NCBI RefSeq assembly: GCF_964213995.1
Contig: NW_027590745.1
Coordinates: 1-64,000, forward strand
Length of the DNA stretch: 64,000 nt
Reading direction: 5' to 3'
Source of the DNA: Mustelus asterias
Lineage: Eukaryota
Shown here: piece after piece, positions 21,209-63,395 of the stretch
How positions within the stretch are numbered: the first letter of the stretch is position 1
Layout of the letters: each line of letters starts with the position of its first letter
Translations under genes and position numbers: made by a program
The notes under the pieces: model-generated
Told to the model about the DNA's origin: nothing
The model's database searches: none
The model's input: the letters and a program-made list of their open reading frames with translations, nothing else

Positions 21209-21296
21209 GTGTGATGTTGCCGGGGCCTGGGGATTGCGCTAGGTGAAATGGAGTTCTCTCACTCAGTTCAATAACTCACCGTTGTCCAGATACAAT

Positions 21297-21414
21297 GGGC
21301 AGGATTTTATGGCCTCGCTCATCCCAAAACTGTAAAATCCCGCTTGAGGTCAATGGACCATTCCGTTGTCTGCCCCTCGCCCACTCCGATTCCCAGGGCG
21401 GTAAAATTCCGACC
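21297..21414. mobile_element. Harbinger-type MITE inserted in the 3' LTR
   Basis: TIRs gggcaggatttta / gtaaaattccgacc; TSD AAT; absent from the other LTR. Confidence 0.85.
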
Positions 21415-21809
21415 AATATAAATGTTTATTCACCTGTCTTCAGGCACTCATCGAAACAGAAATAAAGGAATTAAATACCTCGCTCATCCTTGAGCCCAAT
21501 TTTGCATACAGTTCTGCACACAGTAAATCCTTCCTTCTCCAAGGTAGCTTCCTCTCACTCACTAGTGGGCTACCCACCTAGCGGGATTCAGTACTATGCT
21601 TATATAGTCTGATAAGACTGCACAATTGGTCCTCATCAGACTGCCATCTGACTCCCTATGGCCATCTCAGTAGGATAAGGTCTTGTCCAGATATTATGAG
21701 GGAAAAACCGACCTTCCAACGCACAGCCCCTGGTGACACCACATAACCCCTGGCCTAAACATATCTTGGGGAGCAATGTCTACCTGCAGACTGAATATAC
21801 AGAAACAAT

Positions 21810-22101
21810 TTCTGCTTGGAGGTTCATATCTGTTTCTTCCAGATTCCTGTGACCACAACCACTGCGCTGGGAAATAGAACCACTAGCCTTTTGAGGAGCT
21901 CTAGCATGTTCAGTGATTATTCATTTCCCACAAAGTTCTTTACCATTCAACTCATAAACAGTATCGTCTGCATCTTGAGGATCATCAAATTCAACAAAGC
22001 CATATCCGTTCTTTATGTCCACCTCCAAGATTTTTCCGTGGTCCTTGAAGACGCGCTCCATGGGCCTGGTAACTGAGCCTTCTGGAGTAAACCCGCGACA
22101 T
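21810..22101 (-). pseudogene. srsf4: Processed SRSF4-like (SRSF4/SRSF6) fragment, RRM1 plus linker, inside the LTR element
   Basis: MSRVYSRRLSYQA / ERVFKDHGKILEVDIKNGYGFVEFDDPQDADDTVYELNGKELCGK*IITEHARAP...SGCGHR / SGRNRYEPPSR, compared with SRSF4 MPRVYIGRLSYQARERDVERFFKGYGKILEVDLKNGYGFVEFDD...GYGYRRSGRDKYGPPTR; no introns, two frameshifts, one stop. Confidence 0.88.
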
Positions 22102-22755
22102 CTCCTTTCCCTCTCTTTTCCACACACCCACTGGTGGGAGGCTTCTGATGCAGCGCTCTCGGGCTGCTACCATAGCGCCTAGAACAAAGGACAATCCTGA
22201 CCAATCAATACTTGATGTGGCAAGTGCTTTACAACACCAACCTTGACCTGGTAGGCCCCTGGGGTGTTTGAAAGTAGAGCTGCCCTATGGAATATGCCTG
22301 GGCATCCCCAGCCACACAAGTGATGGCCAAGGCATATGCTCCTTCCTCCAAGAACATGTCTTTGGACACCATGCTCGGATCCACCTAAGTTACAATGCTC
22401 CCCGACTCCCAGATGGCTTCCACAGTTCTCTCTTCCACGTGACGGGTTTTTGGGGGTGCAGGGTTGATGGTGCGGCAGGCTGCAATGAGGTTACAGTCCA
22501 TATACTTGGGGTCATTCTTGTAGGGACATTGACCAGCCAGGTGTCTCACTTCCCTACAATAGCATGATCTCCCCTCTTTTTCCTCCGTTGTGTCTGCCAT
22601 CGCAGTTGCGGTGAAGGTGTTATCCATATTGGATTCTATTCTGAGAGCCATGGCTTCCTAGTCACCTCTTAGGCAACGGCTCCAGATGTTGTCATCGGGG
22701 AACAGCGCCCTTCAGTTTGGGCCCTACTTCAGACTTCCTGTCTTCAGTGGTACTG

Positions 22756-22940
22756 ATGTGGAAATGCCGGTGTTGGACTGGGTGGGCTACAGTAAGAAGC
22801 CTCACATCACCAGGTTAAAGTCCAACAGGTTTATTTGGAATCACAACCCAGATGGACCAGGTGTATGAGATCAACCATCTGAATCGTGATTCCAAATAAA
22901 CCTGTTGGACCTTAACCTGGTGTTGTGAGACTTCTTACTG
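22756..22940. mobile_element. Penelope-derived mini insertion with inverted termini around a 41-bp core
   Basis: Arms 22756-22844 and 22886-22940 are inverted; flanking duplication ttcag/ttcat...tactg (11/13). Confidence 0.88.
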
Positions 22941-23054
22941 TTCATTAGTACTGCTGTTGCTCAACGGATTACACTGCTTGATCCACCTATTGGGGATTCC
23001 CTTGTCTCACCAATCTCCTTACATCCAGTGGTAAAGTCCTGATAAGCGATCCAT

Positions 23055-23323
23055 CGTAGAATCCCTACAGTGCAGAAGAGGCCATTCGGCCCATTGAGTC
23101 TTCACTGACTCTGACAGAGTATCTTACCTCTCACCTACCCTATTCCTGTAACCCCATACATTTCCCACGGCTAATCCACCTAACCTGCACATCTTTGGAC
23201 TGTGGGAGGAAACCCACTCAGACATGGGGAGAATGTGCAAACTGCACACAGACAGTGACCCAAGGCTAGAATCAAACTCAGGTCCCTGGTGCTGTGAGGC
23301 AGCAGTGCTAACCATGTGCCGCC
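23055..23323 (-). mobile_element. HE1-type V-SINE (CR1 tail) inside the LTR element
   Basis: Head ggttagcactgctgcctcacagc; tail ctcttctgcactgtagggattcta. Confidence 0.88.
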
Positions 23324-24345
23324 AGCACAACTCTTCCCACCACAAGTCCTAGGCTGAGCTCCTCTGGTTATAGCCACCTCTTGGCCAGGTGCATGAGATC
23401 AACCGTCTGGGCCTGGGGTGCTCTGTCTTCTTTGTATACCCAGGCATGGAAGCGCTGAACCTGTGTAACCATCATCACTCCTAACCACGGTACAGTTTCT
23501 TTCTTCAGTGCCTCGTAATCCTCTGCTGCTTTCTCTTCCAGGTCATAATAAGCCTCTGGGTTTCACCAGGCACATGCGGGGCAATAATTCCATCCCGTTG
23601 TTCTCATGGCCAGGCGTTCCTGTTCACTGTCCGCTGAAATATCCTCAGAAAAGTTCCTCTGGAACTGCTGGGAGAGATTAAACCATCCAACTGGCAAGCT
23701 CAGCACTTAACCTATGGCGTTCAACCTGTAGTTGCTGATGACTCTTCCTTTACTCTTCCAGCAACAAACAGTTAGTCTCCACTTGAGTCCGAATGGCTTC
23801 GTACTGGGCCAGTACAGCCTGGACCGGTTGTTGTTGTATTAGGGCTTCCATGATTGAACTGAGTTCTCTGTGATTACCCATGACCTAACCCCACATTCTC
23901 CAGCAAATATGATGTCTCCAGGGGCTGGGGATTGCACTAGGTGGGGTGGAGTTTCTCAGTTCAATAACTCGCTGTTGTCCAGGTACAATATAAAGGTGAA
24001 TGTTTATTTACAGAACTTCAGACACTCACCAAAAGAGAAAAAAAGAGAATTAAATAACTAGTTCTTCCTTGCGCCTAACTTTACACACAGTTCTACACAC
24101 AGTACATCCTTCCATCTCCAAGGCAGCTTCCGCTCATTCACACGTGGGCTTCCCACCCAGCGAGACTCAGTACTCTGCTTATATAGCTTGGACCCTCGTT
24201 GTATCAATTATTAATCAGTCTGCATGTGACTTGCTGTGGCCATCTTGGTAGGAAAAGCTCTTGTCCAGATACTGGAGGATATCATGAGGGAAAATCCGAC
24301 CCTCCAACACACAGCCCCTGGTGACATCACAAACCTCCCAGTTAA

Positions 24346-48273: not shown

Positions 48274-48480
48274 CTGCGGGTATTAACCCAGCTAGGGGGA
48301 GGGGGAGGTGGGGGGGGGTAGGGGGGTTCCCCAGTTAGGAAGCATGCCAAGCAAACCCTGGCATATTTGCTTGCAGGTTCCAGGAGGAGGTGGGGGAACC
48401 CAGCATCTGGGTGTGATATCTCAAAGGATTGGCCACCATCAAGTTTAGTAACTAAACAAACTATTGGAAGAATCAACTAT

Positions 48481-49197
48481 GTGTGCGGAACTTGGCTATC
48501 AGTTTCTGCTCAGCGATTCTGCGTTGTCGTGTGTCGTGAAGGCCGCCTTGGAGAACACTTACCCGAAGATCAGAGGCTGAATGCCCGTGACTGCTGAAGT
48601 GTTCCCCGATTGAAAGGGAACACTCCTGCCTGGTGATTATCGAGCGGTGTTCATTCATCCGTTGTCATAGCGTCTGCATGGTCTCCCCAATGTACCATGT
48701 CTCGGACATTCAGCTTCTGATCTTCGGGTAAGCGTTCTCCAAGGCGGCCTTCACGACACACAACAATGCAGAGTCGCTCAGCAGGAACTGATAGCCAAGT
48801 TCCGCACACATGAGGACGGCCTCAACCGGGATCTTGGGTTCATGTCACACTATCTGTAACCCCCGCGACTTGCCTGGGCTTGCAAAATCTCACTAACTGT
48901 CCTGGCTGGAGACAATACACACCTCTTTAACCTCTGCTTAACCCTCTCTCCACTTACATTATCTGTACCTTTAAGACTTGATTACCTGTAAAGACTCGCA
49001 TTCCAACCATTATCTTGTAAATTGAGTTTGTGTCTTTATATGCCCTGTTTGTGAACACAACTCCCACTCACCTGATGAAGGGGCGAGACTCCGAAAGCTT
49101 GTGGCTTGTGCTACCAAATAAACCTGTTGGACTTTAACCTGGTGTTGTGAGACTTCTTACTGTGCTTACTCCAGTCCAACGCCGGCATCTCCACATA
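48481..49197 (+). mobile_element. Penelope-like element with inverted 5' segment (48481-48706 minus, remainder plus)
   Basis: GIY-YIG C-terminal sequence on both strands; pseudo-LTR and tail. Confidence 0.9.
49068..49104 (+). ncRNA. Minimal hammerhead ribozyme motif
   Basis: tcac-CTGATGA-aggggcgagactcc-GAAA-gctt-gtgg. Confidence 0.7.
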
Positions 49198-51150: not shown

Positions 51151-53684
51151 CATAAGGAGATGCATCACAAGTGAGTCTGATTCCTTTAGAAGGATCAAAG
51201 TGGATTAAAAGGTAGGATGGTTGCAGGGTTTACTTCACTTGTCTGAAGGCTTCTTTTTACTGTGTCTTCTAGTATCATCTTTGGTTTTTTTTTAATAACG
51301 CATGTAGAGGTGCCAGCATCATAGACAAGTATGGAATGAATCTCCCATAATCATTTACTATTCCAAGGAAAGACTTTCACTTGTATGCGGTGCTTCTTTA
51401 ATGGCCCTAACTTCATCTTCTATCGGATGCAATCCTTATGTATCCACTCTAAAACCCAAATAAATCACCTCATTTGACTGAAAAGTACACCCCTCTCTCT
51501 TTAGTCTTACTCCAGCTTTGCATATGTTAGACCCCAATCAACTTTGCATACAATTCCTCTATTTTAGGTATACAGCACCTGGTCAGTCTCGGCTGCCCGG
51601 TTTATTGTTACTTTGTAGTCTTCGTATATTTGTACGATCCTATCTGGTTTGATGACCGGCACAATGGGAGCTGCCCACTCTGCAAATTACATGGGCTTTA
51701 TGATGCCCAAATCTTCTAATTGTTTAAGTTTGGTCTCCACCTTCTCATGCATCAAATAAGGCATGGGCTTGGAGGGCTGAAGGGCCTGTTCCTGTGCTGT
51801 AATTTTCTTTGTTCTTTGTTAAGTCTGGCTCTATAGAATTTTGATGTAGCTTCTGGATCCACATGAACTTTGGCTTTCAAGCCTCAGATTTTGCCCAATT
51901 CATCTTGAATGCCCAATGGTATCTTCTGAGGACTTCATGTAAGCCCCCTTCATTCATTTTAAAAATTTCTAGCCAATTTAGTTACCTGAAGCCAATCTTG
52001 ACCCATCAAGCTTAGTCCTTGGCCCAGAACTACAAGTAATAGCTGTTGGGTAGATTGCCGTTTGTAACTTAGAGGTTGTTGTTGTTTCCAAGATCCGTAT
52101 AGCCTCACCCGTGTACATAGCCAGTTTGACTGCAGTATTTTTTAATCTCAGGGGTTAGACCCCTCTCAGTAGGTATCGATAAACTTGCTCTCCTACTACT
52201 GTGGTGGAGGCTCCTATCCACCTCCATTTTGAATGGACGACCATTGACCATCAGTATTATTGAGATAGGGGCTACCTTGCCCACTTTAATATTATTCAAC
52301 TTATGTACATTTGGTCCCCCTTTACAATTATTCTTCATGCTGTTCACTGGAGGTGAAATCTTGACCCTGCTAGCACCCTGCTGGACTCTGCAATTGCTTC
52401 TTACATTCCCCATTCTGCCACAGGTATAACACAGCTTCCTTGAACTTTCATTTCTTCTGGGGGTGATTTCCCCCACACCGATAGCACTCTTCCCAAATCT
52501 TGGTTTGTTGACCGAATCTCTTATACCTCTGCACTTACGCTCTGCATTTCTTTGCTTGTTAAACCCTGTGGGCATCCTTGGCGCCGCTGCCACTAGCAAC
52601 TTCCCTCCAAACTTGATGGATCTTGCATGCCTTGAAGCTCTATAGCATCCTTTTACACACTTTCCATGGCAAGGGCCATTTCTAGCGCCTTCTTTAGGGG
52701 TATTTCTGCTTCTGCCAACAGTTTTTTCCCGAATGGCAGTATTATTCACCCCACACACTAGACGGTCTCTCAACATATCATTAAGGGCAGACCCAAATTC
52801 ACAATGTCCAGCTGTTTGTCTCAATCTCGCCATGAAAGCTGCAGTCACTTCCTCAGGAGCTCTTGCTGTTGAGTTGAACTTATATCTTTGTATGATTACC
52901 AAGAACTTTGGATGATAATGCCCTTTTACTATTTCCACCAGCTGTTTGAAGGTTTGAGAGTCAGCACATCTGGAGAAGTCAAGTTCCTCATTAAATTGTA
53001 GGTTTGGGAACTGCAAGTTGTTAGAAGTATTACCCTCTTCTCCACAATCCTCTATTTCATTTGCTTTTCAAAAATATTGCTAGCTTTTGATGTATTGAAC
53101 CCAATTTTCTGAATTAGGATCAAAGGGTTGTAATTTTCAGAATAGAGGCATTGTTGTAACTTCCCGACTCTTGAATGGACCTGGCTTTAATGACTCTGCT
53201 CTGTCTATGTGGCAATTTGAAAGTTCTCTGTTGACCCTTATCACCAATGTGACATCAAAGAGTTGGTGACTCCCAAGTTTAGTAACTAAACAAACTATTT
53301 ATCATAATGAATCAACTACGTACAGAGTGCAAGAAATGTGCCACTGACTATTTGGACTCCAGTCTCAGACTGACTGAGAAAGCCCGTGCTCAGCCCTGGG
53401 ATTCGCACACTCCGGGCGCGATTGGTTGATTGGGTCACATGACCCTCCAAAACCTTGCACCCCCCCCCCCCCCCCCCCCCCGCCCCCCCGCCACTGCTGC
53501 TGATCCCTCTCCCCTCCATCCTCATTTCCCTCTTCACTCACCTGGGCCTGGGGCCCTCCTCGATCCGACACCTCAGGTGGGTGTAGTATAGTCATCGCCT
53601 CCCGGTGACATTGCTGAGTGCAGAAGAGCTTTCGGCCGTTGATTGACTGGCAGTTTTTGGTGGACATGACTTCCAACCCCCCCA

Positions 53685-54862: not shown

Positions 54863-55087
54863 GTGGGAGTTCTGCTGATCCCTCTCCCCTCCATCCTCAT
54901 TTCCCTCTTCACTCACCTGGGCCTGGGGCCCTCCTCGATCCGACACCTTAGGTGGGTGGTCACAGACAAGCTGCACATTGACGGAGTGGAATCCCTTGCG
55001 ATTCATGAATGCGCCGCGTGTCACCATGGAGCGTCATCAGACCTTTTGGGTCCTCCAAATCATCAGATGATGCACCAGAACCCCCGC

Positions 55088-56469: not shown

Positions 56470-57075
56470 TGCGCTCTATGGTGGCACGCGGCGCATTCAT
56501 GAATCGCAAGGGATTCCACTCCCTCAATGTGCAGCTTGTCTGTGACCTCACAATGAACTTCATGCAGGTGTGAGCCCATTGCCCATGGAGCGTCCATGAC
56601 AGCTACATCTTGGGCCACTCTCAGATCCCAGCTATCTTTGAGGGAGAGCGGCAGCTGGACAGATGGCTCCTTGGGGACATTGGGTACCCACTCAGGAGGT
56701 GTCTGATGATGCGACAAACACCAGCGGAGACTCATTATAGTGAGCCTCATGCTTCAATGCGCGTGCTGATCGAGCAGGTGACTAGCCTGCTGAAGATGTG
56801 GTTCTAGTGCCTGAACCGGTCACCCCACAGAGGGTCCTCCAAATCACTGTAGTCTGCTGTGCTCTCCACAACTTGGTGCTGCCAAGAGGAGACCACCTGG
56901 ACCTGAAGGAGATGGAGGAGCACCACATCTCCCCGGATGAGGAGGACTTCGAGGAGGGCAGTGAGAGTGACCACGCAGAAGAGGAGGCGGAAGAAGCCCG
57001 GGCAATGGTCAGAGCCTGACTGGGCCGACATGCTAGGAATGGCCTCATCACATCTCGCTTCGGGGACAAGCAGGG
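56470..57075 (+). mobile_element. PIF/Harbinger DDE transposase remnant
   Basis: FMNRKGFHSLNVQLVCD, PWSVHDSYIL, WLLGDIGYPL, VLIEQVTSLLKMWF*CL, VVCCALHNL, acidic tail; contains stops. Confidence 0.92.
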
Positions 57076-62909: not shown

Positions 62910-63395
62910 TCTGGGATAAAAGCATTGTCCTATGATGAGAGACTGAGGAAATTGTGTTCACCTTCTCTTGAGTTTAGAAGAATGAGAGCTGATCTAATTG
63001 AAACATACAAGATCAGGAAGGGGCTGGACAGGGTAGAAACTGAGAGGGTGTTTTCCCCTGACTGGTGAATCTAGATGTGGAGATGCCGGCGTTGGACTGG
63101 GGTAAGCACAGTACACTTCTTACTGGTGAATCTAGAACATGGGGGCACAGTCTTAGGACAGGGGTCAATCATTTAGGAATGAGGAATTCCTTCACTGAAA
63201 GGGTTGCGAATCTTTGGAATTCTCTACCCCAGAGGGTTGCAGATGTTTGAGTATATTTCAGGTTGAAGTAGATGGATATTTTTGATCTCTCATGTATTCG
63301 AGGGTTTGTGTGTGTAGTGGAGGTGAAGATGAAGATCAGCCGTATTTGTAATGTATGGCGGAGGATGCTTGTCTATTCCCGCTCCTATGTTCTCA
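62910..63395 (+). mobile_element. Decayed CR1 3' fragment
   Basis: LSYDERLRKL...FRRMRADLIETYKI...NLWNSLPQRV. Confidence 0.8.
63076..63121 (-). mobile_element. 46-bp Penelope tail-only insertion
   Basis: tgtggagatgccggcgttggactggggtaagcacagta plus inverted acttctt; 15-bp duplication actggtgaatctaga (63061 and 63122). Confidence 0.88.

Follow-up and report, generated by a model that had tools for sequence, protein, structure and literature searches.

The closest described counterparts of the structure analysed here are the inverted pLTRs of Penelope-like elements. According to passages of PMC3846280 and PMC8557442 they are mostly arranged head to head, carry a tail of 30-40 bp on one end only, are flanked by duplications of 8-10 bp and form palindromes at the inverted junction. 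Passages of PMC3846280 also mention unrelated sequence between solo pLTRs in a few cases, and a section of PMC8557442 states the formation of Penelope tandem and inverted structures as an open question. Purified PAc (Poseidon of Anolis) cleaves and extends both target strands, with two reverse transcription (RT) start sites that bound the tail; the steps that come after first synthesis are unvalidated in that study (PMC11167929). For R2 (PRINT), portions of PMC11371274 and PMC11331408 report that, before it is joined, the 3' end of the cDNA serves as primer for additional synthesis templated by the cDNA or by target DNA close by. Rare L1 insertions contain short near-site pieces or fold-back inversions, of which excerpts of PMC10191854 give four somatic examples (0.4%) in a set with 354 ordinary inversions, and excerpts of PMC11702581 a handful. 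At breaks in yeast, pairs of pieces from a single locus are captured that overlap in inverted orientation, with junctions about 2-20 bp apart (from a part of PMC11724301), and Pol theta extends DNA in cis and in trans, snap-back included (from a part of PMC4912351).

The structure found at positions 22743-22953 of the window, i.e. the whole stretch of 64,000 nucleotides that was analysed, is a real Penelope-like insertion whose outer form is already known. Its core junction is templated by local DNA, probably with fold-back of the copied strand.

Layout and identity of the 22.8-kb insertion

The whole insertion comprises 211 bases in the order duplication, arm, 41-nt core, arm, duplication. 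The left copy of the target-site duplication (13 bp, 22743-22755, plus strand) overlaps with its last bases the start of the left arm (22756-22844, minus strand), whose 33-nt tail occupies 22756-22788. The right arm (22886-22940, plus strand) is tail-less and is followed by the right copy of the duplication (22941-22953, plus strand). The arm pair is head to head, with the 3' ends outward, and differs at three of 56 positions (22789-22844 against the reverse complement of 22886-22941, about 5%). The claim of the earlier note that the arms are inverted Penelope termini holds: both are 81-98% identical to other Penelope-like 3' ends within the window, the left arm to copies at 2.1, 49.1, 54.4 and 55.1 kb (81-91%) and the right arm to copies at 49108 and 54429 (52-53 of 56 positions). 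The flank duplication that it described is likewise present in the sequence, with 11 of 13 bases matching and an extension to 14 of 17. This duplication is convincing at fixed register (binomial P = 1.1e-5) and less so with sliding ends, since a liberal search of that kind equals its score in 9 of 300 random pairs.

The 33 outer bases are present on the left arm only. A tail on one arm and none on the other is the rule in all three insertions (22.8, 54.8 and 63.1 kb) that are bounded by terminal arms at left and right. The end of the right arm coincides with the stop site of three other tail-less ends, and two fixed sites, give or take a few bases, account for all tail-less (4/4) and all tailed (5/5) ends in the window. 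Given the tail asymmetry and the clustering of the ends, the right arm is most simply explained as another cDNA, for which the opposite strand served as primer. The outer architecture fits priming from both target strands at start sites of the PAc type.

The arms themselves code for nothing. The matching 3' end adjoins an endonuclease-coding stretch in three copies of the window, at 1.7, 48.7 and 53.9 kb. The closest long protein relative of this stretch has 881 amino acids, is 71% identical over the last 78 residues and contains RVT_1, and GIY-YIG matches are found in four of the five long relatives scanned (one above the cut-off). The features of EN+ Penelope-like elements that were found are RT with a carboxyl-terminal GIY-YIG in the relatives, the one-sided tail and the inverted pLTR with its duplication. 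No RT-coding sequence remains in the window.

The insertion is located in a decayed LTR-retrotransposon remnant (21210-24331, minus strand) and, lying in a dead retroelement, has no likely function of its own. The LTRs of the host are 15-16% apart and the arms 5%, which makes the host older than the insertion. No further copy of the host element was found in the window beyond its LTRs. These LTRs have short terminal inverted repeats, and a primer-binding-like site lies near 23890-23905, which we take to be that of tRNA Ala. A 125-bp repeat at 21297-21420 interrupts the 3' LTR, and a 41-bp satellite array surrounds the host element. At about 21780-22070 on the minus strand, beside the 3' LTR, the host remnant contains a coding piece of an SR splicing factor (best PDB match the RRM of SRSF6, E = 4.5e-19), apparently a captured mRNA fragment.

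Origin of the core

The central part of the core, 22857-22881, reproduces 23385-23409 at 23 of 25 positions, as had been claimed, while the runner-up in the window reaches 18 of 25. The ungapped alignment extends to 24 of 29 positions (22855-22883, plus strand, against 23383-23411), and all five differences are transitions toward A or T in the core. The match exceeds chance: the best of 1000 dinucleotide shuffles of the core compared with ±2 kb scored 20 of 25 (reached once), and the best of 200 core shuffles compared with the whole window scored 21. Random real 41-mers, which make a less clean control, reach at least 23 within their own ±2 kb in 173 of 1483 cases; note that nearly all of the 189 random 41-mers with at least 22 are found in tandem arrays or in the Penelope structures at 48 and 53-56 kb.

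The donor (23382-23411, plus strand) lies 428-458 bp beyond the insertion and opens with a 6-bp palindrome (23382-23387), which offers microhomology for a fold-back. It is in frame in a minus-strand gag/SCAN-like remnant, the ORF 23368-23562. The SCAN identity given in the earlier note is weak, with a Pfam match below the cut-off (SCAN, E = 0.077). Atlas matches of the ORF (0.82-0.88), several of them to retrotransposon gag clusters, are a lead only, and a protein search with the SCAN-like piece gave no significant hit among three candidates. Since the donor is in frame in the host remnant and the core is enclosed by the target duplication, the direction of copying is from donor to core. A SINE occupies 23053-23324, between insertion and donor; should the SINE be the younger of the two insertions, donor and target would have been about 270 bp nearer to each other when the Penelope-like ends were inserted. 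Judged by its SINEs, the window resembles shark DNA.

The inverted piece of the core (cccagatgg, 22847-22855, minus strand) matches the reverse complement of donor 23403-23411 at eight of nine positions, in the register of the hairpin. The match is as first described but weak when taken alone, since 14 sites of the window (self included) reach at least 8 of 9. An exact match in the same orientation is found in the left flank (22408-22416, plus strand) and was overlooked in the earlier reading. The direct and inverted pieces both terminate at donor base 23411. The TGG just upstream of the copied piece in the donor is also the end of the inverted piece, and the join within the core allows two readings, a microhomology of 3 nt with an additional base or one of 1 nt with a transition. 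No microhomology beyond 1 nt was found at the cDNA-to-donor junction or at the right outer junction; at the former, its absence is what a jump or a blunt capture would be expected to leave. Two bases stand at the inner end of each arm, namely 22845-22846 on the left (minus strand), which are either untemplated or the last two before a predicted ribozyme cut, and their counterpart 22884-22885 on the right (plus strand). The assigned pieces explain all 41 bases of the core. The hairpin of the arms extends 11 nt into the core (8 of 11 paired, chance in register 1.2e-3), so that the inverted repeat reaches 22855/22875 and leaves a loop of 19 nt.

Joining of the two arms

Geometry, donor, orientation and register are directly seen. 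That a strand copied from nearby DNA folded back and bridged the two cDNAs is, on balance, the account that we favour. We infer the order of events, the role of a ribozyme and the nature of the enzyme, which would be either a polymerase of host end joining, Pol theta for instance, or the RT of Penelope making template jumps. A protein of the Penelope/Poseidon type would cut both target strands 13 bp apart. The left 3' end would prime reverse transcription at the tail start site and the right one 33 nt deeper, at the second start site, and both cDNAs would halt after 55-90 nt, probably at or beside a hammerhead cut site. Because head-to-head cDNA ends would be identical in sequence and unable to pair with each other, a patch would be required. 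Host DNA would be copied leftward from 23411 to about 23382-23383, and the copied strand would then fold back over 1-3 bases of microhomology, leaving the 19-nt loop, and extend along itself. The fold-back may have grown as a run-on from the right cDNA end, in which case synthesis into the cDNA would yield a strand complementary to the left cDNA and solve the pairing problem; alternatively, a free folded-back fragment may have been trapped where the two cDNAs met. The divergence between core and donor is no different from that between the arms (p = 0.64 at 22.8 kb and p = 0.33 at 54.8 kb, both at low power), which is compatible with a single event. Against the run-on version, three of 11 junction pairs are mismatched versus three of 56 in the arms (p = 0.051). 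Against fold-back stand the exact alternative source of the 9-mer at 22408 and the 54.8-kb core, which has no clear fold-back and in which each arm drew from its own flank.

The inner stops of the two arms coincide, possibly at a hammerhead cut site. The minimal hammerhead motif class was described in PMC4209133. The minimal core motif is present in five sibling ends of the window (five of seven pattern matches), and both arms of the 22.8-kb insertion begin downstream of its position. They stop 8 nt before a conserved anchor, at the position of the predicted cut site in the 54.4-kb copy; the four remaining motifs have an anchor spacing of 14-15 nt, and the 8-nt register fits only one of the five intact motifs. 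In addition, each arm has two bases that would match the place directly preceding the cut. Both arms of the 54.8-kb insertion end about 18 nt upstream of the hammerhead core. The Rfam search found no hammerhead, and stems I and II fold in two of four tested motifs, with weak z-scores. Ribozyme cleavage of the anole element is dispensable in vitro, and no RNA-seq reads end at the cut (PMC11167929). The chances that the arm ends are true cut ends are about even. Excerpts of a retrozyme preprint from 2026 (10.64898/2026.07.22.740005) contribute nothing about junctions. A distant metagenome contig, L002, has a similarly compact spacing (counted by eye). Its related Penelope 3' end (523-1010) has a hammerhead motif with the first stem altered on both sides and the AT-rich sequence around it is otherwise unrelated; the contig is possibly a chimera.

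The alternative that survives best dispenses with fold-back and invokes two independent local grabs, the left cDNA having taken 22408-22416 and the right one 23383-23411 (25-29 nt) before the ends were joined. We consider it unlikely and yet a fair rival, as the 22408 match is exact and in direct orientation, the own-side pattern is seen in the 54.8-kb core and no extra substitutions are required at 22882-22883. Its cost lies in the 22408 match, which extends on neither side, and in the 8/9 match to the donor end, which would become a coincidence: the chance of that match at fixed register is 1.1e-4, whereas 74 of 3000 random 9-mers have an exact match within about 500 bp on either side.

A little less probable again is repair at a later time, in which a perfect palindrome of two arms formed first, suffered a break in the middle while in a hairpin or cruciform state, and was closed by end joining with locally templated DNA. 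Sections of PMC8701086 report that cell nucleases cut palindromes and that short spacers stabilise them, and stable spacer-bearing versions may have survived preferentially. The equal inner ends at 22.8 and 54.8 kb fit a central break, and the 63.1-kb insertion described below could be a centre deletion. The same sections, however, report asymmetric deletions as common and the inclusion of a spacer as uncommon. An age gap between core and arms is undetectable, at the low power of the divergence comparison, and neither arm has suffered central loss if the ribozyme-site reading is right.

It is improbable that a single cDNA produced both arms, the left one switching to the donor twice, folding back and recopying itself with the right arm as the product. 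This would explain directly why the inner ends are identical and why the hairpin is extended, and self-priming was proposed for palindromic Penelope junctions in a passage of PMC3846280, but the stop of the right arm at the site of three other tail-less ends would be due to chance and one more template switch would be needed than in the joining of two cDNAs through a folded-back patch. Very improbable, lastly, are a MITE-like unit with Penelope-derived terminal inverted repeats and an imported core, which would account for inverted termini and duplication but has unequal termini, a core whose only other copy in the window is the local donor and no second copy of the arm-core-arm unit in the 64 kb, and an assembly artefact, since arms, duplication and core are all diverged (5-17%), unlike a read or assembly chimera. 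L1-type twin priming was rejected, as the arms overlap over 56 nt and lack poly(A).

Recurrence in the window and comparison with known systems

The 54.8-kb insertion differs from the 22.8-kb one in both terminal sequence and duplication, and the two are independent events, in agreement with the earlier note. The core of the 54.8-kb insertion is local beyond doubt: it matches 53497-53583 at 86 of 87 positions and the reverse complement of 56472-56547 at 73 of 76, and includes an exact 15-nt piece from 56832 that was equalled by one of 2000 shuffles. The 87 nt from 1.3 kb upstream adjoin the left arm and are followed by pieces from 1.3-1.6 kb downstream. The rest of this core (55021-55072) is a mosaic of short pieces, 9-15 nt long, that derive from 56.58-56.85 kb and lie in either orientation; their donor region resembles a remnant of Harbinger type (DDE_Tnp_4, E = 0.092 only).

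The count of two cases in 64 kb has to be corrected, as four head-to-head insertions were found in the window. The third (63058-63136) is a 52-bp insertion with a tailed left arm of 40 nt and a tail-less right arm of 11 nt, at most one base between the arms and a duplication of 17 of 18 bases that includes arm overlaps. The fourth is the Penelope copy at 48479-49196, in which an internal segment is inverted and shares 113 nt with the forward part, at 8% divergence; neither core nor duplication was found there. Local cores are therefore seen in two of four head-to-head insertions versus none of two simple copies, in a window selected for showing the pattern, so that 2/4 is not a rate; palindromes stabilised by a spacer may also be over-represented among the survivors. 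Five 41-nt control stretches at junctions of other Penelope copies matched their flanks at 16-17 of 25, which is background. The proposed recurrence is supported by the local core at 54.8 kb but not by the other two head-to-head insertions, and a recurrent, Penelope-specific mechanism is only partly shown. Host end joining could explain a local core without any special property of Penelope, since locally templated junctions are known for L1, R2 and plain break repair.

Relatives were also searched outside the window. The terminal motif gave no match in the viral or metagenome contigs searched. The endonuclease alignment retrieved no locus in viral contigs, four of 74 candidate stretches in metagenomes and one of nine in prokaryote genomes; the three of these five endonuclease loci that were scanned for repeats showed no inverted-arm pair. 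L002 is the only one that resembles the family at the DNA level, and it is chimeric by look. In a predicted protein of another source (P0005), an inverted Penelope end reads straight into the endonuclease frame, an arrangement that resembles a head-to-head junction without core.

A folded-back local patch hints at how Penelope insertions get finished. In the 22.8- and 54.8-kb junctions the missing step of joining is preserved base by base, in a form that can be counted in any many-copy assembly. Common cores would make it possible to date and locate template switches and to test the role of the hammerhead in vivo, whereas rare ones would be ordinary end-joining filler. A bolder and rather doubtful reading is that, in the lineage at hand, the Penelope protein routinely reverse-transcribes from both target strands, runs off RNA ends cut by a ribozyme or defined by a promoter, and itself jumps to nearby DNA and folds back. 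If true, a large fraction of inverted insertions would carry mosaic copies of their own neighbourhood, a high-copy element would be a steady source of local micro-duplications, and there would be in vivo evidence for ribozyme-cut RNA as template.

Compared with the inverted-pLTR Penelope insertions in the passages cited above, the 22.8-kb insertion is alike in its head-to-head ends, one-sided tail and duplication, and differs in having no ORF and in junction DNA traced to a donor about 0.5 kb away, in both orientations. The tail pattern of the window agrees with the two start sites of PAc in vitro, while the joining of two cDNAs is unresolved in PMC11167929. R2, in the portions cited, joins one cDNA to the upstream target, with snap-back at low frequency, whereas two cDNAs meet in the 22.8-kb insertion. 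L1 twin priming, as covered by the excerpts above, similarly extends both target ends but uses non-overlapping parts of one RNA and adds poly(A), unlike the 22.8-kb arms, which derive from the same RNA stretch and have none; the two local cores among four head-to-head insertions are many beside the L1 figures in those excerpts, in a window chosen for the pattern. The 22.8-kb core has what marks snap-back or templated end joining, a junction copied from nearby DNA in inverted pieces. It resembles the break-repair insertions described in the parts of the sources cited in its overlapping inverted pieces, short loop and scarce microhomology to the break ends; it differs in that the break ends are retroelement cDNAs and that the pieces share 1-3 nt of microhomology, where the yeast median is 6. 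No report of flank-templated cores in Penelope insertions was found in the literature searched (mostly without subscription papers, including older work on Drosophila Penelope). Each ingredient of the 22.8-kb junction has precedent, and their combination does not appear for Penelope in that literature.
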